This document shows positions 7,409 to 35,718 of a DNA stretch of 64,000 nucleotides, in pieces. Under the pieces are notes generated by a model. It saw nothing but the letters and a program-made list of their open reading frames with translations. It did no database searches and was not told the DNA's origin. This stretch comes from Bdellovibrionales bacterium (GTDB lineage: Bacteria; Bdellovibrionota; Bdellovibrionia; Bdellovibrionales; JAUICD01). Numbering within the stretch: the first letter of the stretch is position 1; each line of letters starts with the position of its first letter. The position numbers and the translations under genes are program-made. Location of the stretch: positions 528,830 through 592,829 of the forward strand of contig OZ253553.1 in NCBI GenBank assembly GCA_965262715.1, given 5' to 3'.

Positions 7409-7502
7409 ACTAAAACTCAAAAAGGTGTTAATGAATCTACCTTCTTTTAATATATAAAATAGTTTATAAGAGAGGTTTTTTATGGATGTGTATGAAAAAA
7501 AA

Positions 7503-7524
7503 GCCACAAATATGAATTTGTGGC
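7503..7524. terminator. bidirectional rho-independent terminator between convergent genes
   Basis: Perfect 9-bp stem gccacaaat / atttgtggc with a 4-nt loop, flanked by an A10 run (7493-7502) and ttttta (7525-7530). Confidence 0.75.
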
Positions 7525-7558
7525 TTTTTATTTTCTAAGGAGGTTATTTTTGAAAATA

Positions 7559-9400: not shown

Positions 9401-10047
9401 AAAAATATATCTCCCTAAAAAAGTAATGCAATCCCATTAAGATAAAGTGTTAATAAACTTTTGGTCAGTGTCTAAAAATTAGTCACTAAACTCTCTTTTA
9501 ATAACCTTTAAACTCCCTACTTATATGACATTGCAAGAAGTGCACCTAGAAATGAATCAGTGGTTATTTCAAATTGAGACATGTTAAAAGAAGGGATAGG
9601 TTAATTAAAAATGGAAGTTTTATTAGATATTATAAGAGAAGCCATAGGCTTTAAGATTAAATCCTTAAATTTGATATTTATCTAATATACATGAAATTTA
9701 ACTCTCCTACACATGCTTGTGCAACAAAGCTCATTTACACTAAATAGGTAAAGTTGATGCTTATCTCCATAAGACTTGATGCCGATCTCCACGAGATGCC
9801 TGAACTTCTTGAAAAGTGTTAGTTTTTCAAGAAAGCTGAAAGAGGTATCGAGGGGGGAACAGTGTCTCTTCTCTGATAGCAGTTAAAATGATAGCATAAG
9901 TTTGTGAAGTTGAGCGCAAAAGCTTGAATTGTAAAAGATAAATTAAAAGACCAAAAAGCTATTTATGTTAGAAGCGGCGCAAATATTTTGCGTGGCAATT
10001 ATATAATTTTTGAGATAATAGCTATTTTTGATGGAGTGACTTTTGAA

Positions 10048-13347: not shown

Positions 13348-13424
13348 AAAGGGGTCCTTATTGGGGAGCATTTTTCTATAGTTAATTTTAATGAAATTCT
13401 TTATTCTTGTCAATCCTATCAATG

Positions 13425-13702: not shown

Positions 13703-15541
13703 CTATAAATCGAATGTTTTTAAAAACCTAGATATTTTTCTCTCTTTTTCATCTCCCCAGGGCATTTTTCTTTTTTTAGGCCAAGTGACATATAAAAATC
13801 GCTTTGACCTAGTGAAGGCCACATACAGATTATTTTCTTCTTGCTTAAGATCAATACCCTTTTTTTGTATAGCTCGATAATCAGGGAATGTTTCATCATC
13901 CATACCTATTAGAAAGACGATATCAAACTCCTGCCCTTTCATTGTGTGAACTGTACTTAATGTAATACCTTTGTGTGGAATTGATTGATGAGTTTGGCCT
14001 AATGCCATTGCATTTTTGAACTGTAGTAATGACTTTGTGTCTGTTGTACTGGCGTATTTATTCCAATGTTTTATCAAATCATCAATGTCATTAAAGATCA
14101 TATTTCTTTCATTTTCTTCGCTATAATCAGTAAGTGTATTTTTAAAACTTTTCAAAAGATATTTTAGATTATTCCCATCATCATCTAAATTTATAACTAA
14201 CTGGATAAGAGCCTTATGTTGTTTATTATTTATAGTTGATATAATTTCTTCCAGTGATTTTTCTTTTGAGATATTTGATTTTAGTTTCTCAAGGAGTTTT
14301 CCTTTATGTAATTTATCTTGAGGATTTAATTTAACTTTAAGTGCAAGGTCAAACATATTGATTAGATCAGATTCAAATTGAACTGAACCTATTCGCATTT
14401 TATAATAAAAAGGTATACCCTTAGATTTTAATTGAGTATTGATTTGATTAAAAAGATATTTATTACGGGCAAGGATAACTATTTTTTCGTAAGTGATTTG
14501 ACCTTCAATATCTGGATGTTTTTGTATAGAGACTAGTTCATTGATTTTATCAATAATCCATAAGGCTTCTTTTTCTTCATCTTCTATGCCTTGCAATTCA
14601 AAGATACCTTGTTTCACTGTGTGAGGTATGTCTTTAGCACTAGGAAATATCTTTTTAGTAGCAGATAAAACCTCTTGAGATGAACGATAGTTTTCTTCTA
14701 GTTCTATGACTTCAGGTTTAAAGTCTTTAATAAAAAACTCGGTCATATATTTTGGTGAAGATCCATTGAAATGAAAAATGGATTGGTTAGGATCTCCAAC
14801 CATCATCACATTGTCGAATTGACCTCCTGTTAGAGCCAGCAAGAATTGATATTGGGCATTATTTAAATCTTGGGCCTCATCAATACAAATTGCATAAAAA
14901 CTACGGCGGTACAAGTCCGCCACATTTGGATATTCAATAAATAGTTTGTATGCTAGAATAAGCAGGTCATCAAAGTCTATACCATTTTGACTGCTTAATA
15001 TATCTTGATAATTTTTATAAAGAAGTATTTTTTCATCATCTTTAGATTGAGAGTCTTCTTCAAGTTTACCCATATTCCTTTTAACTTTGGCTATAAATTT
15101 CAATACTTGGTATAAAAATCTTTTTTTCTTTTTCTCATCTTTATTCCTATAAATATTTTCATAAGATGGGGTTAAATTGATAGCTTGTTCTATTAGCTCT
15201 AATCTATCATTTTCGTTTTCAAATATATGAGGCATTTTTTCTAAGCCAATAAGATATCCATGATTTCTCAATGTTTTTTGACAAAATCCATGGAATGTTC
15301 CTACAAAAACTCTTTTATCTAAAGTAGATATACCATTTAATCTTTCTTTGACTTCTTCTCCCGCTTTATGGGTAAAGGTAAGAGCAAGTATCTGCTTCTT
15401 AGTTTTATCTAATAAAATTCTCACTCGTTCTGTAAGAACTCTTGTCTTTCCACTTCCAGCACTGGCTTTGACACAAATGGGCTTATCCTCAAGGTTGACA
15501 ATACTTTTTTGAGTTTCAGATAATTCAATTTTTGCTGACAT
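13703..15541 (-). CDS. UvrD/PcrA/Rep-like SF1 helicase (GajB-like)
   Basis: Walker A ASAGSGKTRVL, CIDEAQDLN, VGTFHGFC, LEENYRSS, TVHTMKGQEFD, LYVAFTRSK. Its start overlaps the upstream OLD-like gene by 17 nt. Confidence 0.85.
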   Translation of the reverse strand: MSAKIELSETQKSIVNLEDKPICVKASAGSGKTRVLTERVRILLDKTKKQILALTFTHKAGEEVKERLNGISTLDKRVFVGTFHGFCQKTLRNHGYLIGLEKMPHIFENENDRLELIEQAINLTPSYENIYRNKDEKKKKRFLYQVLKFIAKVKRNMGKLEEDSQSKDDEKILLYKNYQDILSSQNGIDFDDLLILAYKLFIEYPNVADLYRRSFYAICIDEAQDLNNAQYQFLLALTGGQFDNVMMVGDPNQSIFHFNGSSPKYMTEFFIKDFKPEVIELEENYRSSQEVLSATKKIFPSAKDIPHTVKQGIFELQGIEDEEKEALWIIDKINELVSIQKHPDIEGQITYEKIVILARNKYLFNQINTQLKSKGIPFYYKMRIGSVQFESDLINMFDLALKVKLNPQDKLHKGKLLEKLKSNISKEKSLEEIISTINNKQHKALIQLVINLDDDGNNLKYLLKSFKNTLTDYSEENERNMIFNDIDDLIKHWNKYASTTDTKSLLQFKNAMALGQTHQSIPHKGITLSTVHTMKGQEFDIVFLIGMDDETFPDYRAIQKKGIDLKQEENNLYVAFTRSKRFLYVTWPKKRKMPWGDEKERKISRFLKTFDL

Positions 15542-18500
15542 TGGTTTTATCCTTATTATTATAGTAATCTTTTATTTTATTAAACAAATTTTCTATTTTT
15601 GGAGGAAGTTTGTTACCTTTTATAATTTCTTTTGCCACTGCCTCTCCCATTCTAATCTTATCATCTTTCATAATTTCAAGAAGTCGTTCATCATCGTAAC
15701 TTTCAACTTCTTCTTTTTTTGCAGCTTTATGTTGTTCATTCTTGCAATGAAGTGATAAATAGGCTTTCTTTATTTGCTCTTGGAAGCCATTAGAAATGAG
15801 TTGCTTTTCAAAATCATTACCATCATCCAAAAAAACAACAAACACTTTTGGATCCTTCTTTATTTTAAGTACCTTGGTTTCAACTTCTCCAACAGTATTT
15901 TGATCTGCATCACTAAAGATAAAGCAAGGTATATTTAGAGATTTAGCAAACTTTATAAAAGGAGCATAATTTTTTCCTCCAACTCCTACAAAGTTTAAAC
16001 CTATATCGGAAGGATGTTTCTGAAAGAACTTTTCTGCAAAGATAGGTAGTGCTCGAGATTCAGTTTTTCCTTCTGAAAAAACAATAAAGTTTGAAAAAAT
16101 AATCTCTCCGTGAGTATGAGTCACATGAACTTCAATTTTGCTTTCATCTTCAGATGATAATCCTGTTACTTTTCCGCAGGTTACTTGATTGCTTTTATAC
16201 AATCCTCTAATTTGCCTTATCTTTGCTTTTGCAGCTACATAGGGAGAGTGGGTTGAAATGATCTTTTGGCCTTCAATAGAATTTATTTGATGATAAAGCT
16301 GTTTTTGAGCGTTTGGATGCAAATGAGCTTCAGGCTCTTCTATTGCAAGAATTGGGAAAAACACATTGTCTTGCTCTTGGAATTTTTTTGTAAGCGATGA
16401 AATAAATGCTTTTAAAGTAAGAAGTGATGACCAACTTCTTGTTCCCATACCATGATATTCCATAGAAAAACTATCTGTTTGTTCACCATAATAAATGGAT
16501 AGCCCTTTATTTAAATCTCTTACCTTTTTTGTAAAAGGTGTGATTTCAACATTGGCTTTGTCGTTACCCATAGTTGAGTTAATTTCTCCTAGTACAATCT
16601 TGATATGTGACAAAATGGCACTGCTATCAACGGCTTTTTCATTAAGTGATTTGATTTGATCTTCAATATCTTTGATGTCTTTTTCAGTATATTCTATTTT
16701 TGAAATCATTTTCCCAAGATAAGAACTTTTAAGCTTTATGTCTTTAAGAATATCTCTTTGAGCATCGATGTAAAAGAAAGGTATTTCATCAAAATAAAAG
16801 CGGATTTTATCCCCATCATCTTTATCAAACCAATTTGTATTCTTGTCTTTAAATTTTGGCCAGCCGTTTATAGAAAATTGTTTTTTTTTAAAACTATTTG
16901 TTATTGGATCGAATTTTATTTTTGTTCTAAATGGGAACTGGTTTCTATTGGAATCATCAGGATCAGGTTTAATATTTGCTGCTTGAAATACAGATACCCA
17001 ATCATCTGTGAAGTTCTCACATATATTCCCTTCATCATCAACAGGGACAATAAGAGTATCTATTATAATTTCCTCTGAAGCAGAGTTTTCTTTTATAAAA
17101 AAATCATCCTGAGAGATAAACTGGTGATTGCCAAAAGCCAATTGCAATGCATATAGAATAGAAGACTTACCAGTATTATTTGCTCCTGTTAAAACAGTGG
17201 TTTTTTCTAAATCTATTTCAATATTTTCAAGCCCTCTAAAACCTCTAATACGAATAGTTTTGATTAAAATATCCTTTGGTTCTTGCTGCTGTATTTTTTC
17301 TTCTTTCTTTTGTTGTTCCTTCTTCTTTTCCTCTTTTTGTTCTTTTGCTTTTTCTGCTTTTATTTCATTGAAAAGTTTTGCCATATCTTGTTTTACTATA
17401 TAGTCATATCTTTTTTCAAACTGGGGATAATGATCTTTTGTAATTTTTAAGATATCTGCTATAAAGCCATTTAACTTATAGAGAGGAAAAATTAATGAAG
17501 ATAGGGCTTCTTTTGCTTGAAGGATCAGGTCTCTTAATTTGTGACCATGCTGTGTATTGGAAAGAGTGATTTTATTTGCTAAAAGAAAAGCTATATCCAA
17601 TGCATATATGGGTAACTTTGAGATAGACCTAAAAGCTTCTTGCTCTTTATTTCTACAAATTTGATAAAATCCTTTTTCATCAAATGATATGGTTTTTTCT
17701 TGAGCTATTTTTCTGAGGGGATCCATAAAAAATTTCTGCTCATAAATTTTTAAAATATGTTTGCCTGTATCAGGAGTAGGTTTTTTATCTGTTGAAGGTA
17801 CTTCGAACTCTTTATCTGTTGAAGAAATGAAACCACATTCTTTAAAAAAGCTTACAGTATTTTCAGAATTGTTCCATATATAAGAAGCTATAAAATCTTT
17901 TCTTTCTTTGAGAAGAGCACGCTGTATATTATAGATGAGATATTTTTCATCCCCATCAGAAAGTTGCCAATTGCTTTCTGATATTATTTTTGTTATAATA
18001 TCTATAAAATATTGATCTCCATTAAAGAGTTTATTAAAGAATGCCTTTTTTGTAGGTTCCGATTGGTTGTTCATATAATCATAATAAGATTGGTTAGTTA
18101 TTAGATTATTATTTGTATTTGCTATAATCCCTTCAATATATTGATCAGCTAGGCCTCTTAAAAGAATCAATCTTGTTACTGAAAGATTATTTTCGACTTG
18201 AAGATTGTGAGTAATATATCTTTCGTCTTTATCAGAAAAGGTCTGTGCTAAATGAGTATTGATTTCTTCAGATCTGTTTGGTTCTTTGAGATGAATATAT
18301 TTATTTTGATAGAGTTTGAAAATAAACTCCCCTGAAATAGGCTTTTTATTGGCTATCAGTTTATCAAGTTCTTTTTTAAGTTGTTGATTATTTTGTAAGC
18401 TTCTTGAGTGTGTTATTTGCATTTTTTTACAGATGAGATCTAAAAATTGCTTTTTTCTAACAACATCATCTCCTTTTAAAACACTCATTAGTTTTTCAAA

Positions 18501-18776
18501 AAAAGATTCTTCACTACTTCTATTGTAATAAGGAGGAAAAGGAAGAAACTCCTGACGAACTCTTGGAATATCTGAAAAAGGCAAAACCCAATCTATATCT
18601 TGGTTGTTAGAAATGCTTAGGTTAGCAATAATAGGCAAAAGCTGATCTTCAAATAAAATATCTTTATGTCCTTGTCCTTCTTCAAGTGCCTTGAAATATT
18701 CAATAAACCTTTGACGTATTTCATCACTGGTTAAATGTTTCATAATTGACCTATTTTGATTAATGCATACTTTCAC
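15525..18776 (-). CDS. OLD-family ATPase + Toprim nuclease (GajA-like) with ~500-aa N-terminal AlaRS-like extension
   Basis: C-terminal ~580 aa carry Walker A GANNTGKSS, ILAIEEPEAHLHPNAQ, ISTHSP, and Toprim FSEGKTE ... FIFSDADQ. A K/E-rich linker lies at about aa 471-503. The N-terminal region is described in findings. Start is GTG 18776 or, more likely, ATG 18743 (MKHLTSDEIRQ). Confidence 0.85.
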   Translation of the reverse strand: MKVCINQNRSIMKHLTSDEIRQRFIEYFKALEEGQGHKDILFEDQLLPIIANLSISNNQDIDWVLPFSDIPRVRQEFLPFPPYYNRSSEESFFEKLMSVLKGDDVVRKKQFLDLICKKMQITHSRSLQNNQQLKKELDKLIANKKPISGEFIFKLYQNKYIHLKEPNRSEEINTHLAQTFSDKDERYITHNLQVENNLSVTRLILLRGLADQYIEGIIANTNNNLITNQSYYDYMNNQSEPTKKAFFNKLFNGDQYFIDIITKIISESNWQLSDGDEKYLIYNIQRALLKERKDFIASYIWNNSENTVSFFKECGFISSTDKEFEVPSTDKKPTPDTGKHILKIYEQKFFMDPLRKIAQEKTISFDEKGFYQICRNKEQEAFRSISKLPIYALDIAFLLANKITLSNTQHGHKLRDLILQAKEALSSLIFPLYKLNGFIADILKITKDHYPQFEKRYDYIVKQDMAKLFNEIKAEKAKEQKEEKKKEQQKKEEKIQQQEPKDILIKTIRIRGFRGLENIEIDLEKTTVLTGANNTGKSSILYALQLAFGNHQFISQDDFFIKENSASEEIIIDTLIVPVDDEGNICENFTDDWVSVFQAANIKPDPDDSNRNQFPFRTKIKFDPITNSFKKKQFSINGWPKFKDKNTNWFDKDDGDKIRFYFDEIPFFYIDAQRDILKDIKLKSSYLGKMISKIEYTEKDIKDIEDQIKSLNEKAVDSSAILSHIKIVLGEINSTMGNDKANVEITPFTKKVRDLNKGLSIYYGEQTDSFSMEYHGMGTRSWSSLLTLKAFISSLTKKFQEQDNVFFPILAIEEPEAHLHPNAQKQLYHQINSIEGQKIISTHSPYVAAKAKIRQIRGLYKSNQVTCGKVTGLSSEDESKIEVHVTHTHGEIIFSNFIVFSEGKTESRALPIFAEKFFQKHPSDIGLNFVGVGGKNYAPFIKFAKSLNIPCFIFSDADQNTVGEVETKVLKIKKDPKVFVVFLDDGNDFEKQLISNGFQEQIKKAYLSLHCKNEQHKAAKKEEVESYDDERLLEIMKDDKIRMGEAVAKEIIKGNKLPPKIENLFNKIKDYYNNKDKTNVSKN

Positions 18777-21230: not shown

Positions 21231-21318
21231 CTTTTACTTAAGATTGATTTTAGTAGAAATATTTTTCCTTAACGCTAATAAAAAATGAAAAGATATTACT
21301 TTCTAACAATACCTCAAG

Positions 21319-21419
21319 CTTTCTAAGCAGCAAGCTACTCTCCGATGGTGTTATAACCATCGGGCTTGCTGCCAGAAGGTGGCCGGAGGCTTGCCTCGAG
21401 AGGCTTGCCTCAAGAGGCC
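21319..21419. repeat. hairpin-repeat family member (third stem variant) plus gaggcttgcctc tandem motif
   Basis: ctttctaagcagcaagc ... gcttgctgccagaagg long stem with nested ccgatggt/accatcgg, followed by ggcttgcctcgagaggcttgcctcaagaggcc. Confidence 0.7.
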
Positions 21420-21446
21420 AGATGTTGGCTGTGCTGGTAGTCTGAC

Positions 21447-22862: not shown

Positions 22863-23041
22863 TGGTTATTTTCCTTTATCTTTTTATTTCATTCCTCATA
22901 TCTCTATCAGCGTTGGTTTGGTTTTTATCTATGACAGAGAGGTTTAGAAAAGATTTATTAGAACTCACCTCAAAATTACTTTTAATGTCCACGTTTTCAA
23001 AACAACCTCTTAATTTAAGTACCGTATAAAAGAACTGTTTC

Positions 23042-23200
23042 ACTCAAAATGGACCCTTCCGGCTTTCCGTAGAGCCACTATCATGGCTCTCGTCAAGTCT
23101 GTTCATTTTGAGTAAGAAGCCATCTTTAGTTATATTATGTTTTGTATTTTGCAATTTCGTATTATTTACTGTTATCATGTATTTTTGAGATGGCTTCTAA
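23042..23200. repeat. hairpin-repeat family module with ACTCAAAATG termini plus gccatctcaaaaat segment
   Basis: actcaaaatggac ... gttcattttgagt inverted termini enclosing a gagccactatcatggctc hairpin, then tgtatttttgagatggcttc (also at 1470, 29517 and 49790). Confidence 0.7.
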
Positions 23201-23205
23201 AAAGT

Positions 23206-23385
23206 TTATTTAATTTCTTTATGGAGTGTGTGTTTTTTTAGAAATGGGTTGTATTTTTTCTTTTCCAATCGTTCAGGATGGGTCTGTGTGTTCTTTTTAG
23301 TTGTGTAACGAGATGGAGAGGCACCTAGTTTCCTAGCTTCTGTACATTCTAAAGTAATAATTTTAACTTTTCCTTTTTTGGCCAT
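23206..23385 (-). CDS. rpmG: 50S ribosomal protein L33 (Cys-poor form)
   Basis: Not in the ORF track (59 aa). Manual translation: [59 protein letters not shown]. It has the L33 core YTT.KN....PE.LE.KKY.P....H.L.KE.K. Confidence 0.85.
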
Positions 23386-25168: not shown

Positions 25169-25211
25169 ATTTTGTTGCATGCCTCCATAAATTAAGCATT
25201 AAAATCAATAT
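25169..25211. repeat. left arm of a perfect 43-bp inverted repeat
   Basis: attttgttgcatgcctccataaattaagcattaaaatcaatat is the exact reverse complement of 25905-25947. Confidence 0.95.
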
Positions 25212-25342
25212 TTTTTGTTCTAACTCTCTTTTTTTATTTATATTTGTAGTCTTAGTTAAAGATTTTGACATAATATTTTGAATATGTTCAAATGGCCAAT
25301 ATTTTCCAGAGAAATTTGACTCAAATGTGAAGGAGAGGATGT

Positions 25343-25924
25343 ATGAAATATTCTTTAAAAAAACAAATAAGCTTATTTTTTATAGTATTTATTGGAGGAA
25401 GCCAGCTTTTTGCGCAAGATGATGTGTCGAATGATATTTCAGAACTTATATCACAGACTATAAGTGCTAGTTATACTATTAGCCCCTCTTTTCCTCATTT
25501 AAGAGTAGTTCTTTCAGACCTATTAAGAAGTATAGATAGAGATGTTGAAGAGAGACCAGTGAAGTTTGATCAGATATTTATGGTACTTACTCCTCTTACA
25601 AGAGCAGTTCTCTTAGATCTTATGGATGAAGATGTTTTTAAAGAGAGACCAATGAATTTCCATCAGATATTTATGCTGCTTGGGAGTTTATGTCCAATAT
25701 ATTCATTTCCAGTAGAGTTATTTGAAATATTTGAGCCAATTCTTCAAGAATCAAGTCAATTTGAAGAAATTGTTATAAACATTGAGTTTGGTGGAAATGG
25801 ATCTGAAAGAGAGTCTTTTGTTTTGTCACAGGAAGAAGTACATTTTCTAAGGGAGATAATAAGATGTTCTGAAGAAGAAGCGGAAATAGAAGAAAGAAAT
25901 GATTATATTGATTTTAATGCTTAA
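25343..25924 (+). CDS. secreted hypothetical protein
   Basis: GGAG SD and signal-like N-terminus. Internal repeat ERPVKFDQIFMVL / ERPMNFHQIFMLL. The last 20 nt lie inside the right inverted-repeat arm. Confidence 0.6.
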   Translation: MKYSLKKQISLFFIVFIGGSQLFAQDDVSNDISELISQTISASYTISPSFPHLRVVLSDLLRSIDRDVEERPVKFDQIFMVLTPLTRAVLLDLMDEDVFKERPMNFHQIFMLLGSLCPIYSFPVELFEIFEPILQESSQFEEIVINIEFGGNGSERESFVLSQEEVHFLREIIRCSEEEAEIEERNDYIDFNA

Positions 25925-25947
25925 TTTATGGAGGCATGCAACAAAAT
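25905..25947. repeat. right arm of a perfect 43-bp inverted repeat
   Basis: atattgattttaatgcttaatttatggaggcatgcaacaaaat. Confidence 0.95.
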
Positions 25948-26137
25948 GGGTAATACCAGAGGAGTAGGATGATAGCCTGCTGATTGATGTTGATAAGAGA
26001 GGAAATCAGAGTTTATAGGACTAAAAAATTTAGAAACAAGAAAGAGAAAAAATCAGCTGTTATAATACACCCTTGCTTTTCAAGTAGTTTATTTCTGTAA
26101 TGGTTGGAATTTATTTCTACAGTTTGATCCTTATCTT

Positions 26138-26245
26138 TATCCTTGAAAAAGGATATTCTATATTATTTCACTACTTAGTAAAAACTCAAAAGAAGCTTAT
26201 TTTGAAGGTGTTCATAAGAGGTATAATATTTTATTAAAGAAATAA
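26138..26245 (+). pseudogene. deletion remnant of a second hipBA locus (one operator plus the last ~25 hipA codons)
   Basis: tatccttgaaaaaggata (26138-26155) matches the hipB operators. 26170-26245 (...aaaagaagcttattttgaaggtgttcataagaggtataatattttattaaagaaataa) matches hipA 29250-29310. Confidence 0.75.
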
Positions 26246-26276
26246 AAAATATCAATTATTATTTATACAAAGTTAT

Positions 26277-26415
26277 TTTCCGGGAATCTGGCAACCCGGC
26301 AGTCCGGAAAACAGTATCCGGAATCTGGCATCGGTGATTTTGTTAATTTTTTTTTGTTAAAATTTAAGTTACCTGATGCTGTCTCCGGCTTGCCTGATTG
26401 CTGGATCCCGGAAAA
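26277..26415. repeat. GC-rich palindromic intergenic repeat with TTTTCCGGGA / TCCCGGAAAA termini
   Basis: ttttccgggaatctggcaacccggcagtccggaaaacagtatccggaatctggca...ctccggcttgcctgattgctggatcccggaaaa. Confidence 0.75.
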
Positions 26416-26593: not shown

Positions 26594-27136
26594 ATGGTAA
26601 GGCTTATTTTAAATCAAAAAGGAATATCTATGATAGAGATCCTTATTGTGGTGGTGATTGTTGGCCTTTTGGCCACTATGGGTATCCCAGGTTATCAACA
26701 GTTAAAAAGGAATAGTTACCAGCAATCAGGTATGGCCCAGCTAGCCGCTTACCACCGTGCTGCAAAGATCATGATAGGGGAATTTGCCTACAACCCTGGT
26801 AATTTTGTAGCTATAGGTTTTAAACTTGAAGGAGATTATTATTATAGGATAAAGGCTGCAGATGGTGAAGATCCACCTGATTATTACCCTAATCAAGGGA
26901 GTTGTGAATCTACAGAAGTTCCTACGCTACCAGGAGGTTGTTCTCAGTTTTGTGAAGGTTCACCATTAGAGTGTCCTTGGCGTGAACTATTAAGTTCCTA
27001 TAAGGATGCATCACCGCTTCCAAGCCCAACAATTTCTGTAGATGGTATGAGGTTCAAAGCATATGCCTATTCTAATGATGAAGAGAATTATCTTTGTACA
27101 GATGAAGCTGGGGTTTATGCTGGTGATTGTCCATAA
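26594..27136 (+). CDS. type IV pilin-like protein (prepilin N-terminal domain)
   Basis: Leader MVRLILNQKG followed by ISMIEILIVVVIVGLLATMGIPGY. This gives Gly at -1, Glu at +5 and a hydrophobic N-terminal helix. GAGGTG SD. Confidence 0.75.
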   Translation: MVRLILNQKGISMIEILIVVVIVGLLATMGIPGYQQLKRNSYQQSGMAQLAAYHRAAKIMIGEFAYNPGNFVAIGFKLEGDYYYRIKAADGEDPPDYYPNQGSCESTEVPTLPGGCSQFCEGSPLECPWRELLSSYKDASPLPSPTISVDGMRFKAYAYSNDEENYLCTDEAGVYAGDCP

Positions 27137-27154
27137 TTATCTTCTTTAAGTCAT

Positions 27155-27236
27155 TTTTCTCCCGGAATCTGGCAATCCAGCAGTCGGGCAATTAGTTCCC
27201 GGAAACCGGTTTCCCGGAAGCCAGATCCCTGGTAAA
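27155..27236. repeat. GC-rich palindromic intergenic repeat
   Basis: tctcccggaatctggcaatccagcagtcgggcaattagttcccggaaaccggtttcccggaagccagatccctgg; near-identical core to 33933-34018. Confidence 0.8.
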
Positions 27237-27479: not shown

Positions 27480-27550
27480 TTAATTTCAAGAACTTATCGC
27501 AAAAGTAAACAGCCCCTTAGTTATAAACTAAATGTTACTTTGCTTGTTTT

Positions 27551-27650
27551 TATCTTTAAAAAAAGATATTTAGATATAATTTGACTATTTATATCCTTAA
27601 ATAAGGTTATTATATATTATTCTATTTGTTTTTATCCTTAAAAAAGGATA
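27551..27650 (+). promoter_or_regulatory. three phased HipB-type operators overlapping a candidate hipBA promoter
   Basis: Operators TATCT-N8-AGATA (27551-27568), TATCC-N8-GGTTA (27592-27609) and TATCC-N8-GGATA (27633-27650), each start 41 bp apart. Candidate promoter is TTGTTT (27626-27631), 17 nt, TATTAT (27649-27654). Confidence 0.65.
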
Positions 27651-27676
27651 TTATTATAAAAAAAAGGGTTATTTAT

Positions 27677-27910
27677 ATGAAAAAAGGTATTGAAGAAACA
27701 GAGGTATCAAGATTTGGTTTGTTCATTAAACAAAAGCGTAAAAATAGAGGTATAACTCAAAAGGAGTTAGCTAGGCATGCAAGGGTCAGTTTTACATTGG
27801 TCAATCGTATAGAAAATGGAGATATAAAATTAAATATATCTTCTGTAAATAAAGTTTTGAAAGTTTTTGGATGCGCACTTGCCCCTGTTCGTTTAGAGAT
27901 TAAAGAATGA
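27677..27910 (+). CDS. hipB: XRE-family HTH antitoxin HipB
   Basis: 77 aa from ATG 27677. HTH segment GITQKELARHARVSFTLVNRIENG. Its stop overlaps the hipA start (ATGA). Confidence 0.8.
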   Translation: MKKGIEETEVSRFGLFIKQKRKNRGITQKELARHARVSFTLVNRIENGDIKLNISSVNKVLKVFGCALAPVRLEIKE

Positions 27911-29310
27911 AAAATATTGCAAATGAAGAGAATTATATGTCAGAGATAAAAAAAATAATAAATACAAAGAAGGCTTGGGTTTATTTAAGAGATATTCTAG
28001 CAGGGGAGCTTGAAAAATCCGATGAGGCTTCTGTAGTTTTTAAATTCACTTATTTTAAAGATTATTTAGAAAGTCAAAACCCAGAAATAGCTCGAGCTTT
28101 TCCTAAAAGAAAAGAATCTTATATCAGTTCAGATTTACACCCTTTTTTTGATAATCTTATTGTTGAAGGATGGTTATTAACATATACAGAAAAACTTTTA
28201 CATATTCATAAATTAGATCGTTTCAAACTGCTTATGGCTACAGGAAGCGCTCCTATTGGGGCTGTAAGTGTGAGACCTGTTTATAATCAACAACCTATCA
28301 ATATGACTGAAGTTCTTTTTAATAAAAACACAGAAGTTCACTTTATTAAAGAACCTAATAAGATGAGAGATACATTTCATTTTTGTCCATCTTGTTTTCG
28401 GGAATTAGGAGGGGATGAAGTGCATAGAAAGTGTACTATAGCTATGTGGGGCACAACAAGAAAGTTGAAATTAAAAATAAATAAAGATAGTCCTGATGAA
28501 ATGTTTGGATCTACTATTTATGGAGGTTCTATATCTGGTCATCAAAAAAAGGGAATGTTTAAAATCAACAGCAGGACAGGTGAATTGGTACCTACACCTG
28601 ATAGAGCAACTCATATCTTAAAGCCATCTGGACATTTACCAGAGTTGCCAGAAAATGAACATGTCACAATGGCTATTGCAAAAGCTTTGAAATTTCCTAC
28701 ACCTTCGTTTGATTTGTTGGAATTTGAAGGCATAGGGAGAGTGTTTGCCACTGCTCGCTTTGATCGCAGTTTGGATGGAATGAGATTGCCATTGATGCAA
28801 GAGGATATGTGTCAGGTTATAGGGGTTTCAAGTGATAGAAAATATGATCTAAGTTATGAGAAGATTGCAAAAGCAATTAGAAAACACAGCTTGGCGCCTT
28901 TGGTTGATCTTTATGATTTTTATCGTAGGTTTGTTTTTTGTTATCTTGTGCTTAATGGGGATATGCACTTAAAAAATTGGTCTTTACTTGAAAGTCAAAA
29001 AGAGTTAGGTAGCTTTGTATTAGCGCCCTGTTACGATCTTTTAAATACAAGAATTTTTTTATCAAGAGAGTTAACGGATATAGCTCTACAGTTGAATGGA
29101 AAAGATAGGAATCTTACTAAAAAGGATATTTCCTATTTTGGTAAAGATATTGGTCTTAGTGCTGAAACTATTGAACTTATTTTTAGCGAGCTTTCAAGCT
29201 GGTTGGAGGTGATTAAAAAATACATAAATTTGTGTTTGCTTAGTAAGAAGTCAAAAGAAGCTTACCTTGAAGGTGTTTATAAAAGGTATAACATTTTATT
29301 AAAGAAATAA
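27907..29310 (+). CDS. hipA: HipA-family serine/threonine kinase toxin
   Basis: MQEDMCQVIGVSSDRKY and NGDMHLKNWSLL match the HipA C-terminal kinase motifs. N-terminal coupling region present. CxxC...HxxC element FCPSCFRELGGDEVHRKC. Confidence 0.8.
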   Translation: MKNIANEENYMSEIKKIINTKKAWVYLRDILAGELEKSDEASVVFKFTYFKDYLESQNPEIARAFPKRKESYISSDLHPFFDNLIVEGWLLTYTEKLLHIHKLDRFKLLMATGSAPIGAVSVRPVYNQQPINMTEVLFNKNTEVHFIKEPNKMRDTFHFCPSCFRELGGDEVHRKCTIAMWGTTRKLKLKINKDSPDEMFGSTIYGGSISGHQKKGMFKINSRTGELVPTPDRATHILKPSGHLPELPENEHVTMAIAKALKFPTPSFDLLEFEGIGRVFATARFDRSLDGMRLPLMQEDMCQVIGVSSDRKYDLSYEKIAKAIRKHSLAPLVDLYDFYRRFVFCYLVLNGDMHLKNWSLLESQKELGSFVLAPCYDLLNTRIFLSRELTDIALQLNGKDRNLTKKDISYFGKDIGLSAETIELIFSELSSWLEVIKKYINLCLLSKKSKEAYLEGVYKRYNILLKK

Positions 29311-29340
29311 AAAATATCAATTATTATTTATACAAAGTTA

Positions 29341-29505
29341 TTTTCCGGGAAACAGGCAACCCGGCAGTCAGTTTCCGGGATCCATTCAGTCCATTCTTGA
29401 GAGCTAGATTATAGTTTATCTAAAAAGATATAGATGAAACTTTCTACTTTCTTAATTCCTAAATCCCGGAGTTCAGTTTCACAGAGACCGGATTCCGGGT
29501 AAAAA
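29341..29505. repeat. GC-rich palindromic repeat, split into two halves by an ~80-bp AT-rich insert
   Basis: ttttccgggaaacaggcaacccggcagtcagtttccgggatcc ... aaatcccggagttcagtttcacagagaccggattccgggtaaaaa. Confidence 0.7.
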
Positions 29506-29739
29506 GAAGTTCTAGAAGCCATCTCAAAAATGCAGCTAGAGATAACAATTTTAGAAAAAATACCAGCTTTATATTATACAAAGAATTCCATGAGATGGCC
29601 TTTACTCAAAATGAATAGAAGACAAGCCTCTCGAGGCAAGCCTTTTTGAGGATTGCCCATGAAATAAATCTAGGTACTGATCCGATGGCAAGAATAAAGT
29701 TTCCCTAACATTGTGTTAAGAAACAAGAAGATCCTCCCT

Positions 29740-32700
29740 ACTAAAATGCATTAGCCTTTCTAGGCAGTAAGCTATTTGCTGACGATGTGAACCGCCTGAG
29801 CTGACTACCAGAAAGTCGCCAGAGGCTAGCCTCGAGAGGCGAGATGCATTTTAGAGAAAAAAAAGCAGGTTCATTTTGAGGAAGACAGCTTTTTTATATA
29901 AGAAATTAGAGGTAATAGGTACAAATGTTCATAGACTTTTACTGAAACAGCACGATTCCCTTAACATGATGTTAAATAATGAGGAGTATCTGGTTTACTA
30001 AAATGCATCAGGCTTTCCAGGTAGTCAGCTATTTGCTGACGATGTGAACCGCCTGAGCTGACTACCAGAAAGTCGCCAGAGGCTCGCCTCGAGAGGCGAG
30101 ATGCATTTTAGTGAAAAAAAAGCAGGTTTATTTTGAGGAAGACAGCTCTTTTATATAAGAAATTAGAGGTAATAGGTACAAACGTTCATAGACTTTTACT
30201 GAAACAGCACGATTCCCTTAACATGATGTTAAATAATGAGGAGTATCTGGTTTACTAAAATGCATCAGGCTTTCTAGGTAGTCAGCTATTTGCTGACGAT
30301 GTGAACCGCCTGAGCTGACTACCAGAAAGTCGCCAGAGGCTCGCCTCGAGAGGCGAGATGCATTTTAGTGAAAAAAAAGCAGGTTTATTTTGAGGAAGAC
30401 AGCTCTTTTATATAAGAAATTAGAGGTAATAGGTACAAACGTTCATAGACTTTTACTGAAACAGCACGATTCCCTTAACATGATGTTAAATAATGAGGAG
30501 TATCTGGTTTACTAAAATGCATCAGGCTTTCTAGGTAGTCAGCTATTTGCTGACGATGTGAACCGCCTGAGCTGACTACCAGAAAGTCGCCAGAGGCTCG
30601 CCTCGAGAGGCGAGATGCATTTTAGTGAAAAAAAAGCAGGTTTATTTTGAGGAAGACAGCTCTTTTATATAAGAAATTAGAGGTAATAGGTACAAACGTT
30701 CATAGACTTTTACTGAAACAGCACGATTCCCTTAACATGATGTTAAATAATGAGGAGTATCTGGTTTACTAAAATGCATCAGGCTTTCTAGGTAGTCAGC
30801 TATTTGCTGACGATGTGAACCGCCTGAGCTGACTACCAGAAAGTCGCCAGAGGCTCGCCTCGAGAGGCGAGATGCATTTTAGTGAAAAAAAAGCAGGTTT
30901 ATTTTGAGGAAGACAGCTCTTTTATATAAGAAATTAGAGGTAATAGGTACAAACGTTCATAGACTTTTACTGAAACAGCACGATTCCCTTAACATGATGT
31001 TAAATAATGAGGAGTATCTGGTTTACTAAAATGCATTAGCCTTTCTAGGCAGTAAGCTATTTGCTGACGATGTGAACCGCCTGAGCTGACTACCAGAAAG
31101 TCGCCAGAGGCTAGCCTCGAGAGGCGAGATGCATTTTAGAGAAAAAAAAGCAGGTTCATTTTGAGGAAGACAGCTTTTTTATATAAGAAATTAGAGGTAA
31201 TAGGTACAAATGTTCATAGACTTTTACTGAAACAGCACGATTCCCTTAACATGATGTTAAATAATGAGGAGTATCTGGTTTACTAAAATGCATCAGGCTT
31301 TCTAGGTAGTCAGCTATTTGCTGACGATGTGAACCGCCTGAGCTGACTACCAGAAAGTCGCCAGAGGCTCGCCTCGAGAGGCGAGATGCATTTTAGTGAA
31401 AAAAAAGCAGGTTCATTTTGAGGAAGACAGCCCTTTTATATAAGAAATTAGAGGTAATAGGTACAAACGTTCATAGACTTTTACTGAAACAGCACGATTC
31501 CCTTAACATGATGTTAAATAATGAGGAGTATCTGGTTTACTAAAATGCATCAGGCTTTCTAGGTAGTCAGCTATTTGCTGACGATGTGAACCGCCTGAGC
31601 TGACTACCAGAAAGTCGCCAGAGGCTAGCCTCGAGAGGCGAGATGCATTTTAGTGAAAAAAAAGCAGGTTCATTTTGAGGAAGACAGCCCTTTTATATAA
31701 GAAATTAGAGGTAATAGGTACAAACGTTCATAGACTTTTACTGAAACAGCACGATTCCCTTAACATGATGTTAAATAATGAGGAGTATCTGGTTTACTAA
31801 AATGCATCAGGCTTTCTAGGTAGTCAGCTATTTGCTGACGATGTGAACCGCCTGAGCTGACTACCAGAAAGTCGCCAGAGGCTAGCCTCGAGAGGCGAGA
31901 TGCATTTTAGTGAAAAAAAAGCAGGTTCATTTTGAGGAAGACAGCTCTTTTATATAAGAAATTAGAGGTAATAGGTACAAACGTTCATAGACTTTTACTG
32001 AAACAGCACGATTCCCTTAACATGATGTTAAATAATGAGGAGTATCTCGTTTACTAAAATGCATCAGGCTTTCTAGGTAGTCAGCTATTTGCTGACGATG
32101 TGAACCGCCTGAGCTGACTACCAGAAAGTCGCCAGAGGCTCGCCTCGAGAGGCGAGATGCATTTTAGTGAAAAAAAAGCAGGTTCATTTTGAGGAAGACA
32201 GCCCTTTTATATAAGAAATTAGAGGTAATAGGTACAAACGTTCATAGACTTTTACTGAAACAGCACGATTCCCTTAACATGATGTTAAATAATGAGGAGT
32301 ATCTGGTTTACTAAAATGCATCAGGCTTTTTAGGTAGTCAGCTATTTGCTGACGATGTGAACCGCCTGAGCTGACTACCAGAAAGTCGCCAGAGGCTCGC
32401 CTCGAGAGGCGAGATGCATTTTAGTGAAAAAAAAGCAGGTTTATTTTGAGGAAGACAGCTCTTTTATATAAGAAATTAGAGGTAATAGGTACAAATGTTC
32501 ATAGACTTTTACTGAAACAGCACGATTCCCTTAACATGATGTTAAATAATGAGGAGTATCTGGTTTACTAAAATGCATCAGGCTTTCTAGGTAGTCAGCT
32601 ATTTGCTGACGATGTGAACCGCCTGAGCTGACTACCAGAAAGTCGCCAGAGGCTCGCCTCGAGAGGCGAGATGCATTTTAGTGAAAAAAAAGCAGGTTCA

Positions 32701-33465
32701 TTTTGAGGAAGACAGCTCTTTTATATAAGAAATTAGAGGTAATAGGTACAAACGTTCATAGACTTTTACTGAAACAGCACGATTCCCTTAACATGATGTT
32801 AAATAATGAGGAGTATCTGGTTTACTAAAATGCATCAGGCTTTCTAGGTAGTCAGCTATTTGCTGACGATGTGAACCGCCTGAGCTGACTACCAGAAAGT
32901 CGCCAGAGGCTAGCCTCGAGAGGCGAGATGCATTTTAGTGAAAAAAAAGCAGGTTCATTTTGAGGAAGACAGCCCTTTTATATAAGAAATTAGAGGTAAT
33001 AGGTACAAACGTTCATAGACTTTTACTGAAACAGCACGATTCCCTTAACATGATGTTAAATAATGAGGAGTATCTGGTTTACTAAAATGCATCAGGCTTT
33101 CTAGGTAGTCAGCTATTTGCTGACGATGTGAACCGCCTGAGCTGACTACCAGAAAGTCGCCAGAGGCTCGCCTCGAGAGGCGAGATGCATTTTAGTGAAA
33201 AAAAAGCAGGTTCATTTTGAGGAAGACAGCTCTTTTATATAAGAAATTAGAGGTAATAGGTACAAACGTTCATAGACTTTTACTGAAACAGCACGATTCC
33301 CTTAACATGATGTTAAATAATGAGGAGTATCTCGTTTACTAAAATGCATCAGGCTTTCTAGGTAGTCAGCTATTTGCTGACGATGTGAATCGTCAGGCTG
33401 ACTACCAGAAAGTCGCCAGTCAGGCTGACTACCAGAAAGTCGCCAGAGGCGAGATGCATTTTAGT
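29740..33465 (+). repeat. tandem array of 14.5 x 257-bp noncoding units (15 palindromic modules, 14 spacers)
   Basis: The motif ctaaaatgcat recurs at 29741 + 257n for n = 0..14. Units differ only at a handful of SNP positions. No ORF of 60 aa or more on either strand, and 257 is not a multiple of 3. The leader 29510-29739 is homologous to 1094-1500 (reverse complement). Confidence 0.95.
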
Positions 33466-33546
33466 GAAAATAGTTAGATAAAGTTATGAACCACTGGAAA
33501 TGTTTATTAAGTTTTTATTTTTGAGACCAGTTCTAATTAAGTTGTA

Positions 33547-33858
33547 TCATGCTACTGTGACAGTTAAGTTAATGTGTGCATCTCTTAACTTGTCTTGGAG
33601 TGCAAGTTGAATCCAATATGCTTCTGGTTCTCCAATAGCACAAGCAATATTTTTTGCTGTTGTAGGAGATGGGATCTTCTTTCCTTTCTCAATATCAGAA
33701 AGACTTTGAACAGATAGTCCCAATAGAGCAGCACATTTACGTAAGGTTAAATTACGACATTGCCTTTCTGAAGCAATAGCAGATGCAAAAGTGAGTCTTC
33801 CAATATCTCGACTAAGTTCTTTTGTTCCATATTTTATCGTATATTTTTTCTTTGCCAT
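33547..33858 (-). CDS. XRE-family HTH protein (HigA-like, orphan)
   Basis: LTLRKCAALLGLSVQSLSDIEKGKKIPS helix-turn-helix; 103 aa; no credible partner ORF adjacent. Confidence 0.7.
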   Translation of the reverse strand: MAKKKYTIKYGTKELSRDIGRLTFASAIASERQCRNLTLRKCAALLGLSVQSLSDIEKGKKIPSPTTAKNIACAIGEPEAYWIQLALQDKLRDAHINLTVTVA

Positions 33859-33932
33859 TGTATTTCCTTTAATATTTGTGTTTGTGCACTCAAATTATAA
33901 TAATAAAATTTATATTTGCATCTATTTTTATG

Positions 33933-34018
33933 TTTTTTCCGGTAGTCCGGTAAACCGGTAGTCGGGCCATCAGTTCCCGGAAACCGGTTTCACGGAGGCC
34001 AGATCCCGGATAAAAAAA
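33933..34018. repeat. GC-rich palindromic intergenic repeat
   Basis: ttttttccggtagtccggtaaaccggtagtcgggccatcagttcccggaaaccggtttcacggaggccagatcccggataaaaaaa. Confidence 0.8.
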
Positions 34019-34072
34019 GAAACCTTTTGTAAAATATATTGTAACCTCTTGACTATTTGAATAAAAAACACA
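34005..34072 (+). repeat. 68-bp direct repeat, copy 1 (copy 2 at 34450-34518, upstream of dnaJ)
   Basis: cccggataaaaaaagaaa(a)c(c)ttttgtaaaatatattgtaacc.cttgactatttgaataaaaaacaca occurs at both positions with 3-4 differences. Confidence 0.85.
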
Positions 34073-34106
34073 TTCATTTTCCTTAAAATAAACTAACTTC
34101 TGTTTC

Positions 34107-34205
34107 ACTAAAATGCATCTGGCCTCTGGCCATTTTCTGGCGATGACCCTGACATGTTTACACTGTCAGTATGGTCATCGCCTGGAAAAATTGATGCATT
34201 TTAGT
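34107..34205 (+). repeat. hairpin-repeat module with canonical termini but a different internal stem
   Basis: actaaaatgcatc ... gatgcattttagt termini are identical to the array modules. The internal stem is ggcgatgaccctgacatg / (ca)tgtcagtatggtcatcgcc instead. Confidence 0.8.
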
Positions 34206-34417
34206 AGGGAGGATATCTTCATTGTCTTACGTCATGTTAGGGAAATCCTTGTTGTTTATCAGTCAGCCTGACGGGTCGTAGCGTCAGTAAAAAGCTGATT
34301 GCCTCAAAAATTCATTTATTTTAAGGAGGGAGATATTCTTTATGTTCTTACATCATGTTAAGGAAAACTTTCTATAATGTATTTTAAAGATTCATAACTA
34401 CTTAAACATTTTTCCAA

Positions 34418-34518
34418 GTTCCCAGAGATCGGATTCCCGGAGGCCATGTCCCGGATAAAAAAAGAAAACTTTTATAAAATATATTGTAACCCCTTGACTA
34501 TTTGAATAAAAAACACAT
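34418..34518 (+). repeat. partial GC-rich repeat plus 68-bp direct repeat copy 2
   Basis: ttcccagagatcggattcccggaggccatgtcccggataaaaaaagaaaacttttataaaatatattgtaaccccttgactatttgaataaaaaacaca. Confidence 0.8.
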
Positions 34519-34590
34519 CTTATAAGAGCGGATGTATCCAAATGGGGTCTATTCTTTCGTCTTATTATAAAGCAATAAATAGGTTTGAGT

Positions 34591-35718
34591 ATGCAAGAAG
34601 ATTATTATGATGTTTTAGGTGTTCCTCGTCAGGCTGGGCAGTCGGATATTAAAAAAGCTTACAGGCAGTTAGCATTAAAGTATCATCCTGATAGAAACCC
34701 TAATGACAAGAATGCTGAAGAAAAATTCAAAAAAGCTGCAGAGGCTTATGACGTGCTTGGTAATCCTGAAAAGCGCAGTCGGTATGATCAATTTGGACAT
34801 GCTGCATTTCAGCAGACTGGTGGTCAGTATTCTGGATCTATGAATTTAAACGATATATTTTCAAATTTTGGCGATGTTTTCGAAGACTTTTTCAGCGGAG
34901 GTATGGGAGGTGGAAGTTCAAGACAAAGATCAAGATCACACCAAGGGGCAGACCTTCGTTATACATTAGAAATTACAATAGAAGATGTCATCAATGGTTT
35001 TGAAGAGAGTATCGAGTTTGATTGTGAAGAAAACTGTTTGACATGTGAAGGTAGTGGAGCAGATCCAAAGCATGGCTTAGAGATATGTCAAAAGTGTAAC
35101 GGAACGGGACAAGTTGTTCGTTCTCAAGGTTTTTTTTCTATGGCCTCTACTTGCGCACATTGCAGAGGTCAAGGCCAGAGAGTTAAATACCCTTGTCATT
35201 CTTGTGGAGGGCAGGGCCGATCTGTAAAGCCTAAAAAGGTTGAGGTGAAGGTACCAAAAGGGGTGGATTCAGGGCTAAAATTAAGATATGAAGGTGAAGG
35301 GGAAGGTGGATATAATAAGGGTACTCATGGAGATCTTTATGTGGAAATCCATGTTCTAGACCATAAAGAGTTTGAAAGAAAAGATGATGATCTCTATGGA
35401 GAGGTTCATATCTCATATCTTCAGGCTATTTTAGGGACTCATATTCAGGTCAATACACTTGATGGCAAAAAGAAGCTTAAAATTCCTTTAGGTACACAAC
35501 CAAATCAACTGCTCCGGCTCTCTGGCTTAGGCATCCCTCACCTAGACTTAAAAAGCAGGTCTTTTATTAAAACCAAAGGACGTGGAGATTTACTTTTTAC
35601 TGTTTTTGTAGATTTGCCTAAAAAGCCTAAAAAGCAGGAAGAAAAACTTTTAAGACAAATTGCAGAAATGAAAAAGGAAGATATCAGTGAGTCTCTAGGT
35701 TTTCTTGGAAAAAGATAA
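34591..35718 (+). CDS. dnaJ: molecular chaperone DnaJ
   Basis: J domain DYYDVLGV...YHPDRNP. G/F-rich linker. Four CxxCxGxG zinc motifs ([32 protein letters not shown]). Confidence 0.95.

Follow-up and report, generated by a model that had tools for sequence, protein, structure and literature searches.

A branched intergenic repeat family with co-varying helices in a Bdellovibrionales chromosome and related genomes

Within a 64,000-nucleotide stretch of contig OZ253553.1 from a Bdellovibrionales bacterium (hereafter ‘the window’), the element at positions 34107-34205 belongs to a previously undescribed repeat family, which is a new example of a familiar bacterial kind. Its members are probably non-autonomous, fold-dependent interspersed repeats, of the same broad sort as REPIN, BOX, ERIC and Correia elements. 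Each unit is ~150-170 nt long and consists of a 7-nt prefix, a three-way junction formed by helices P1, P2 and P3, and a conserved tail of ~45 nt that we call S. An initial annotation of the window had described simple hairpins; folding instead revealed a branched structure with a conserved 3′ tail, in which the 13-nt ‘termini’ of that annotation form the 13-bp outer stem, P1. To judge from the aligned copies, this fold is clearly preserved by matched mutations.

Architecture and covariation of the repeat unit

The unit at 34107, which lies on the plus strand, illustrates the arrangement. The prefix CTGTTTC (34100-34106) is near-invariant in the family alignment and precedes the P1 5′ arm ACTAAAATGCATC (34107-34119). 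Its partner GATGCATTTTAGT (34193-34205) is the exact reverse complement, so that exact 13-nt inverted termini do enclose a ggcgatgacc/ggtcatcgcc stem, as had been reported. P2 is a short GC hairpin, TGGCCTCTGGCCA (34120-34132), whose loop holds a 14-nt variable-number tandem repeat (VNTR) in other copies. P3 is a long hairpin (34133-34189). At its base is the helix TTTTCTGG/CCTGGAAAA, followed by an 8-bp helix that varies between copies (CGATGACC/GGTCATCG) and an inner hairpin (CTGACAG.../CTGTCAG), with a bulge on the 3′ side. The S tail, AGGGAGGAT...CTTACGTCATGTTAGGGAAATCC (34206-34248), contains the conserved box TTAACA-N3-TGTTAAGGAAA.

The same parts recur throughout the family. The prefix (C)TGTTTC is conserved before the junction. 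P2 (TCGCCTCTGGCGA or similar) carries zero, one or more copies of the 14-nt repeat GAGGCGAGCCTCTC in its loop, and this is the repeat that Tandem Repeats Finder (TRF) reports at 1188-1222 and 21386-21418. P3 has a conserved base helix (TTTCTGG/CCTAGAAA), the 8-bp variable helix, an inner hairpin of 7-8 bp and the conserved 3′-side bulge CAAATA. An S tail follows P1 in nearly all copies and, in the window, is found only beside a junction module (H). Two P1 classes, A (ACTAAAATGCATC) and B (ACTCAAAATAAAC), share one architecture, and the P3 base helix co-varies with the P1 class (CTTTCTGG/CCTAGAAAG versus TTTTTGGG/CCTCAAAAA). In the sense orientation and with RNA parameters, H modules fold with z-scores of -5.5 to -10; folds with DNA parameters are similarly strong on both strands. 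A further helix, formed between the prefix and the first part of S, had support in only two class-B copies and was not adopted.

Compensatory change extends to every helix of this fold. When 13 copies are aligned with MAFFT alone, RNAalifold recovers a three-way junction and 23 of 43 pairs are changed on both sides. In an alignment of 24 distinct copies fitted to the covariance model, 94.1% of cells pair versus 84.1 ± 0.6% in shuffles, and pairing drops to 30-49% when partners are slid by 1-3 columns. Double-sided changes affect 30 of the 43 pairs in this alignment (14.3 ± 2.1 in shuffles), and none of 500 shuffles reaches any of five covariation measures. The model-fitted alignment leans to its own structure, but the unfitted MAFFT alignment agrees with it. 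The structural alignment therefore bears out the proposal that the arms co-vary. The 8-bp helix alone exists in at least nine versions, including the fully complementary CAGTAAGC, CAGTCAGC, TAGTCAGC, CAGTTAGC, CAGCAAGC, CATTGCCT and CGATGACC and the near-perfect CAATGATC and CAATCAAC. P1, which the initial annotation took to be kept constant, is so only within the window genome; in relatives it co-varies as well (ACTAAAATACATC/GATGTATTTTAGT, CCTAAAAAAGGCT/AGCCATTTTTAGG, ACTCAAAATAAAC/GTTTATTTTGAGT, ACTAAAAATGCCTC/GAGGCATTTTTACT and others). By contrast, the 15-bp palindrome TTAACA-N3-TGTTAA in S is conserved as sequence, without covariation.

This analysis also changes the standing of the 34107 stem, which had been called unrelated to the others. 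It sits in the helix shared by the other copies, with the same conserved flanks (TTTCTGG and CCTGGAAA) on either side, and four of the eight pairs of the variable helix are changed, each change being compensated. The same version recurs in a related genome upstream of dnaJ (locus L010, 9459-9627), and an intermediate, CAATGATC, occurs in another (L012). On these sequence grounds, the 34107 stem is a homologous variant of the family helix. The earlier conclusion of a functional structure in RNA or single-stranded DNA holds in one respect, as the alignments show that some process keeps the arms complementary; which nucleic acid folds is a separate matter, to which we return below.

Copies, nesting and recombination

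The window is chromosomal, has 34% GC and includes rplM, alaS, gajAB, pgpA, cinA, recA, hipBA, dnaJ-dnaK, an opp-type transporter and sodA among its genes. Allowing up to two mismatches, the 13-mer terminus occurs 40 times in the window versus 3.9 ± 2.0 times in shuffles, and most occurrences flank units of a tandem array. With 13 copies as input, a covariance model finds seven sites plus this array, all in the first 35 kb of the window, and nothing convincing over 35-64 kb; its full-length matches reach 116-188 bits.

The array (29693-33472, minus strand) was delimited by TRF, by reading the sequence and by the covariance model. It comprises 14 full 257-bp units and a final variant unit. TRF places it at 29739-33419 with a period of 257, 14.3 copies and 98% matches; the model finds a first unit at 29693-29862(-), then 13 further full units and the final variant. 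Each 257-bp unit consists of H, S and ~100 nt with remnants of the 5′ arms of two other units. The majority stem is ggtagtcagc/gctgactacc, as first described. Units 1 and 6 are identical, sharing the same eight differences from the consensus, and carry a ggcagtaagc arm opposite a gctgactacc arm; these hybrids are ~9 kcal/mol less stable than ordinary units. An independent contig of 16 kb, which comes from another sample (L007), matches the window exactly from ~33842 on and ends ~370 bp short of the array, so the copy number of the array rests on a single assembly.

Other copies in the window are more dispersed. A full class-A unit with a degenerate P1 and the stem CAGTAAGC/GCTTACTG lies at 985-1140(+) (152 bits), opposite in orientation to the array; the ggcagtaagc/gcttactgcc arms between degenerate termini at 992-1093 are as originally noted. 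Nearby are a VNTR (AGAGGCTCACCTCG, 2.5 copies by TRF) in the P2 of a truncated unit (1188-1222, +) and a full but partly decayed class-B unit, ACTCAAAATAAAT/ATTTATTTTAAGT (1256-1425, -; 124 bits). Between recA and a rhomboid gene, a decayed unit (21255-21436, -; 116 bits) has the stem CAGCAAGC/GCTTGCTG and a P2 VNTR at 21386-21418. Its agcagcaagc/gcttgctgc stem at 21319-21380 was correctly identified, but its termini, thought lost, are degenerate: GAGGTATTGTTAG remains, with a decayed tail. A divergent class-B-like hairpin with a different interior, ACTCAAAATGGAC...GTTCATTTTGAGT (23035-23160, +; 27.5 bits, E = 0.009), lies within a ~240-bp insertion missing from two relatives. Sister termini ACTCAAAATG.../...CATTTTGAGT had been assigned to three places; both are present at 23042-23113, whereas 29596 and 1233-1245 hold only one-armed fragments. 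The former fragment, class-B ACTCAAAATGAAT with a P2 VNTR (29596-29692, +), is part of a ~230-240-bp block that continues the first array unit and has an inverted duplicate at ~1005-1246. Block and duplicate are ~88% identical overall (87.7% over 243 nt, with segments up to 95%). Solo P1 5′ arms also flank several full units on one side or the other.

A third palindromic module (...AGCCATCTCAAAAATGC...), one arm of which resembles P1 arms, occurs at 1430-1503, 23178-23212 and 29500-29575. At 22968-23207, two third-module arms lie at the ends of the entire 240-bp insertion around the 23042-23113 hairpin.

The window DnaJ is 81-85% identical to relatives in ENA, ~52-55% identical to those of the best named Bdellovibrionales metagenome-assembled genomes, and no named relative exceeds ~60% identity in ribosomal protein L13. 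Because the named relatives are so distant, the organism seems to represent a poorly sampled, uncultured lineage, possibly near Bdellovibrionota. For comparison we used the dnaJ and rplM neighborhoods of related genomes, seven loci (L008-L014) of ~130 kb in total; L009 and L014 come from the same sample (ERZ25766727) and may therefore be one genome. The covariance model finds 18 copies in six of these loci (~110 kb), representing four or five related genomes: three each in L008, L009, L010 and L014, four in L012, and two decayed copies in the more distant L013 (L13 80% identical). L011 has no copy by this model. One of the three L010 copies, at 9308-9464, was read in the sequence and is missing from the model list because it overlaps 9459-9627. 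In L012, a 92-aa gene call (6697-6975, -) is probably spurious, as it lies wholly over two repeat units.

Wider searches returned no further members. The exact-termini pattern CTAAAATGCATC-N62-92-GATGCATTTTAG had no match in 185,579 GTDB species genomes, and its single match in JGI metagenomes (L001) is an unrelated perfect palindrome. The 22-mer GATGCATTTTAGTAGGGAGGAT, which runs from the P1 3′ arm into the S tail, had no match in IMG/VR, and the 257-bp unit none in plasmid or phage collections. Rfam 15 gave no match at the gathering threshold over the whole window; at E ≤ 5, the 33300-34600 region yielded only chance-level matches elsewhere and none on the element. Exact look-ups of the window RecA and helix-turn-helix (HTH) proteins matched no record, and a DnaJ pattern scan of GTDB genomes returned distant phyla only.

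Upstream of dnaJ, the 34107 unit is itself enclosed. A class-B 5′ arm, CCTTAAAATAAAC, lies at 34081-34093(+), and the rest of a class-B unit at 34258-34367(+), with P3 at 34258-34310, the P1 3′ arm TTTATTTTAAGG at 34315-34326 and a second S tail to 34367. The covariance model gives a partial match at 34260-34301(+), and S sequence is matched at 34347-34366. Positions 34081-34092 (CCTTAAAATAAA) are the exact 12-nt complement of 34315-34326, and both arms match class-B P1. Between them stand the class-A unit (34100-34248) and then the class-B P3, with the second S tail after. Because exact class-B arms enclose 34100-34248, we regard the 34107 hairpin as nested in a class-B unit, into which it appears to have inserted or with which it appears to have recombined. 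L012 contains a similar composite.

The nested units also lie between duplicated promoters. A promoter-like element (CCCTTGACT, ~14 nt, CCCATCT) precedes dnaJ in six of six genomes; from the E. coli consensus CTTGAAA-N13-14-CCCCATNT, we take it to be of the σ32 type. In the window, the dnaJ-proximal copy, CTTGACT-N14-CACATCT (34493-34520, +), stands before the dnaJ start codon at 34591 (P0001, 375 aa), and an upstream duplicate, CTTGACT-N14-CACATTC (34048-34075, +; duplicated with 34480-34506), faces the element. The promoter duplicates lie at 34035-34075 and 34480-34520 in the window, at 9380, 9637 and 9894 in L008, and at ~9283, ~9675 and 9903 in L010. H-S units occupy the intervals between them in the window and, with two and three copies respectively, in L008 and L010; they begin directly after the -10 box in L008 and L010 and after the 13-nt class-B arm in the window. 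L009 has units upstream of a single dnaJ promoter, one of them inverted, and L011 and L012 have the promoter with no unit upstream of dnaJ. Because units lie between promoter copies, the length of the dnaJ-dnaK leader differs by hundreds of bases among close relatives.

A second, CCGG-rich repeat family (for example TTCCCGGAAACCGGTTTCACGGAGGCCAGATCCCGGATAAAAAAAG) occurs at 26254-26328, 27135-27209, 29319-29393, 29455-29500, 33938-34012 and 34425-34466. Its members stand at the ends of many genes, and a copy is conserved just upstream of the σ32-like dnaJ promoter in five or more of the six genomes, including those of L008, L010, L011 and L012.

Possible mobility, relationship to known repeats and the folding strand

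Several features suggest that units have moved. In the window, repeat-bearing DNA takes up ~400 bp of the recA-rhomboid intergenic region and ~240 bp of the glyoxalase-rpmG one; the corresponding sites in L008 and L009 are essentially empty. Hybrids like array units 1 and 6 recur elsewhere (L012 8621-8787), as expected if variants recombine. We propose that units would appear in intergenic DNA, inside or beside one another; that every helix would then diversify by paired compensatory substitutions; and that recombination between variants would generate mismatched hybrids. The 14-nt repeat in P2 could expand and contract by slippage, and units could amplify in tandem together with their flanks, as in the 257-bp, 14-unit array and the two or three copies with the dnaJ promoter in relatives. 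The arms would stay complementary because a folded single-stranded form is acted on, which might be DNA during mobilization or repair or RNA when units are co-transcribed.

A number of observations weigh against this proposal. Comparison of the two filled sites with their empty counterparts defines neither a target-site duplication nor a protein-type terminal inverted repeat, and deletion could in principle account for the ‘empty’ sites. By the DnaJ measure above, the genomes under comparison have diverged, so no single insertion event was caught. There is no transposase of any kind in the window and no Y1/HUH enzyme among the called genes of L008-L014, so the search for a hairpin-recognizing enzyme, suggested with the original description, came back negative over this sequence; the transposases called in the related loci are of the IS110 and DDE (DDE_Tnp_1) types only. 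Three conserved asymmetric features, namely the S tail, the CAAATA bulge and the invariable P2-P3 order, would serve no purpose in a unit that was simply a palindrome. Finally, the lineage sequence covers ~190 kb, which limits what can be said of copy number per genome. A TTTATT repeat considered as a target duplication was rejected, as it is native to the empty site.

In L012, an IS110-family insertion sequence (6914-8664; ORF 7254-8177 with DEDD_Tnp_IS110 and Transposase_20 matches) splits the S tail of a unit between ATGTTAA and GGAAATCG, and AA stands at each junction. It is inserted in the unit and is not bounded by the unit's arms. This recalls IS1111/IS621-type elements that target repetitive extragenic palindromic (REP) sequences.

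Among known families, the closest parallels are REPINs, which are hairpins of REP doublets mobilized by RAYT Y1 transposases (Bertels & Rainey 2011, PMC3116915). Like the present family, REPINs are long, hairpin-forming extragenic repeats with compensatory stem changes and several classes per genome; they form tandem clusters with their flanks, insert into or beside one another and persist in related genomes, and their folding has been proposed in single-stranded DNA or mRNA (PMC3116915). In contrast, our units combine a branched ~100-120-nt three-way junction with a 45-nt non-palindromic tail, whereas a REPIN consists of two REPs of 20-40 nt, and the 14-unit, 3.7-kb array compares with at most four REPINs over ~700 bp in SBW25. 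REPs are characterized as 20-40-nt imperfect palindromes with a conserved GTAG or CGTC at one end (PMC3733652). GTAG is present only in the array variant GGTAGTCAGC, with GCAG or GCGA in other copies; the CGTC of the inner hairpin reads CTTC in L009 and L010 copies; no REP pair is recognizable in the three-way-junction fold; and no RAYT gene (PF01797), which REPIN genomes carry as a single copy that repeat clusters usually flank, was found in the window or among the called genes of L008-L014.

Pneumococcal BOX elements (boxA-boxB(n)-boxC; Croucher et al. 2011, PMC3049150) resemble the family in being modular, with outer modules that pair and an internal module whose copy number varies with little effect on the fold; its counterpart here is the 14-nt repeat of the P2 loop. 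They are also intergenic, often co-transcribed, clustered and nested (PMC3049150). They differ in phylum and in the length of the variable module (45 nt versus 14 nt), and our family adds the long hairpin and conserved 3′ tail. ERIC/IRU and the Neisseria Correia elements are imperfect palindromes of ~100-150 bp that resemble MITEs (miniature transposable elements with inverted repeats) and can sit in 5′ or 3′ untranslated regions, affect mRNA processing or carry promoters (PMC3049150, PMC2229807). Size, occurrence in both orientations and intergenic location are shared, but Correia elements carry protein-type terminal repeats of 26 bp, a duplicated TA and a site for integration host factor (IHF), whereas the terminal arms here co-vary and no duplication is seen. 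For the same reasons, variable and co-varying P1 arms and no target duplication, we rejected a classical MITE. Membership in the REPIN or MITE families thus fails on defining features, as membership in BOX probably does, which is why we describe a new family. The likeness to BOX is probably architectural only, as the boxA consensus looks unrelated.

Other classes of element were also considered. The termini do not fit the RYYYAAC...GTTRRRY boxes of integron attC sites, and the 140-nt array spacers read as lacking cassette ORFs; no intI turned up among the scanned window ORFs of at least 80 aa. Self-cleaving ribozymes were rejected on the lack of an Rfam ribozyme match and of a hammerhead core (CUGAUGC lacks the required A9), and a type I toxin-antitoxin or small ORF because only non-hydrophobic ORFs of 9-15 codons start from the conserved ATGTTAAGG, with GGAGG 21-23 nt upstream, which is too far. 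A CsrA sponge does not fit, as the first GGA motif is lost in array units. Within S, there is no IHF site, HipB operator or attC box. On both strands, the P2 GC hairpin precedes a T-rich run (TTTTCTGG on one, ATGCATTTTAGT on the other) and so resembles a terminator, but the T-runs are short and interrupted, the hairpin is part of a larger fold and many copies lie away from gene ends. This likeness nevertheless means that copies just 3′ of stop codons could act as stabilizers or terminators.

Whether RNA or single-stranded DNA folds bears on the strongest alternative, that the H-S unit is a host-functional structured RNA, either a small RNA or a cis-acting leader or trailer, with dispersed copies as paralogues or by-products. 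Possible roles include a 5′ stabilizer of dnaJ-dnaK, a 3′ stabilizer or terminator, or a heat-shock small RNA. We give this alternative a minority share of our confidence. It draws on the sense orientation of the units that directly follow the duplicated σ32-like promoters in the window, L008 and L010; such copies would be transcribed in heat shock. Other sense copies lie 0-130 nt after a stop codon (L012 6596, L009 15308, L014 9790 and the array after the HTH gene). Moreover, in the array units and the 992 copy the inner hairpin needs G·U pairs to close, on the strand that reads prefix-P1-P2-P3-S, and the asymmetric S tail, bulge and P2/P3 order are conserved. By our own count, G·U exceeds A·C by 13 to 3 in the best-scoring copies, a bias that is partly circular because the covariance model rewards G·U. 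Across all stem cells, however, Watson-Crick pairs predominate almost purely (816, versus 41 G·U and 22 A·C; by independent copy, ~20 G·U versus ~13 A·C). The antisense strand is at least as stable as the sense strand in 14 of 19 copies, which would be expected of a DNA-level palindrome; because both strands fold equally well, RNA and single-stranded DNA are not separable. Orientation relative to flanking genes in tandem-gene contexts is not significantly biased (~6 loci sense versus 4 antisense, by our own count), no terminator follows the unit, copies away from dnaJ share no promoter, L011 and L012 have the dnaJ promoter and no unit there, and Rfam has no match.

A bolder version of these ideas, which we regard as rather unlikely, is that the units encode a σ32-driven structured RNA induced by heat shock or, alternatively, are substrates of an undescribed type of hairpin-recognizing mobilization enzyme. 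The latter is proposed because no RAYT, GTAG tag, terminal repeat or target duplication fits.

Neutral correction or gene conversion between palindrome arms, templated by the hairpin in an otherwise functionless repeat, could also keep arms complementary. Near-perfect Watson-Crick stems on both strands are consistent with such a process, as is the concerted evolution visible within genomes: the inner hairpin of the L010 9459 unit, for instance, resembles its L010 neighbors rather than its window orthologue. We consider it improbable, however, as the mismatched hybrids in two array units stand uncorrected and the conserved unpaired bulge, junctions and S tail are left unexplained; it also needs a hairpin in vivo and so overlaps with the fold-dependent repeat that we favor. 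More doubtful still is a DNA-level binding array, in which the S palindrome, an extruded cruciform or both would be bound by a dimeric protein such as the adjacent XRE-type HTH protein and the 14 array units would form a cluster of binding sites. Conservation of the 15-bp S palindrome as sequence fits this idea, as does the HTH_3 gene (33547-33858) that adjoins the array, together with a called gene of equal length (103 aa) and with the same HTH_3 match that adjoins the L012 units. Yet the palindrome is lost in L010 copies, which keep the ATGTTAAGGAAA half, no HTH gene stands beside units in L008, L009 or L010, a 257-bp spacing and dispersed copies by unrelated genes do not suit an operator array, and the covariation of P1-P3 goes unexplained. 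Although the termini are AT-rich in a 34% GC genome, the chance sharing of an AT-rich word by unrelated sequences can be set aside almost entirely, given the tenfold excess of termini over shuffles, the scores of full-length model matches and the same architecture in four or five further genomes.

Neighboring features and implications

Several other features of the window deserve mention. Palindromes of the TATCC-N8-GGATA type (TTTTTATCCTTAAAAAAGGATATT) occur as three copies spaced by 41 bp at 27544-27659, just upstream of hipB (27626-27910) and hipA (27907-29310), and also at 26131-26157; we take them to be the classic HipB operator pattern. Perfect 43-nt inverted repeats (25169-25211 and 25905-25947), each with an outward-pointing GGAGG-ATG start signal, flank a 193-aa ORF (25343-25924) with no Pfam or PADLOC match, and this segment (25169-25947) could be invertible or duplicated. 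A Gabija pair on the minus strand (13703-18776) encodes GajB (612 aa, E = 1e-229) and GajA (E = 4e-201). Because the GajA match covers only residues 502-1072 of a 1083-aa ORF, the actual start probably lies within the ORF, unless the protein has a large N-terminal extension. The alanyl-tRNA synthetase ORF (10048-13422, -) is 1124 aa long, and its catalytic-domain match is split into three stretches, which points to an insertion or to an ORF called too long. Two paralogous ORFs of ~890 aa in tandem (1645-4323 and 4721-7408), with 77-94% nucleotide identity in blocks, have no Pfam domain.

The family opens no long-standing question. It adds a new repeat family from a poorly sampled, uncultured lineage, and it is an uncommonly clear example of compensatory evolution in a branched structure, across five helices and five or six genomes, that bears on how repeats persist and diversify. 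In practice, the covariance model would let annotators mask these units and avoid spurious ORF calls. More broadly, the promoter-coupled copies at dnaJ constitute a natural experiment on how a repeat can rewire the leader of a heat-shock operon. If the units do act as RNA, they would be either a small RNA, encoded in many copies and induced by stress, or a 5′ leader that adjusts dnaJ-dnaK expression, with duplicated dnaJ promoters firing straight into a unit in at least three genomes and the 3.7-kb array serving as a reservoir or sponge.

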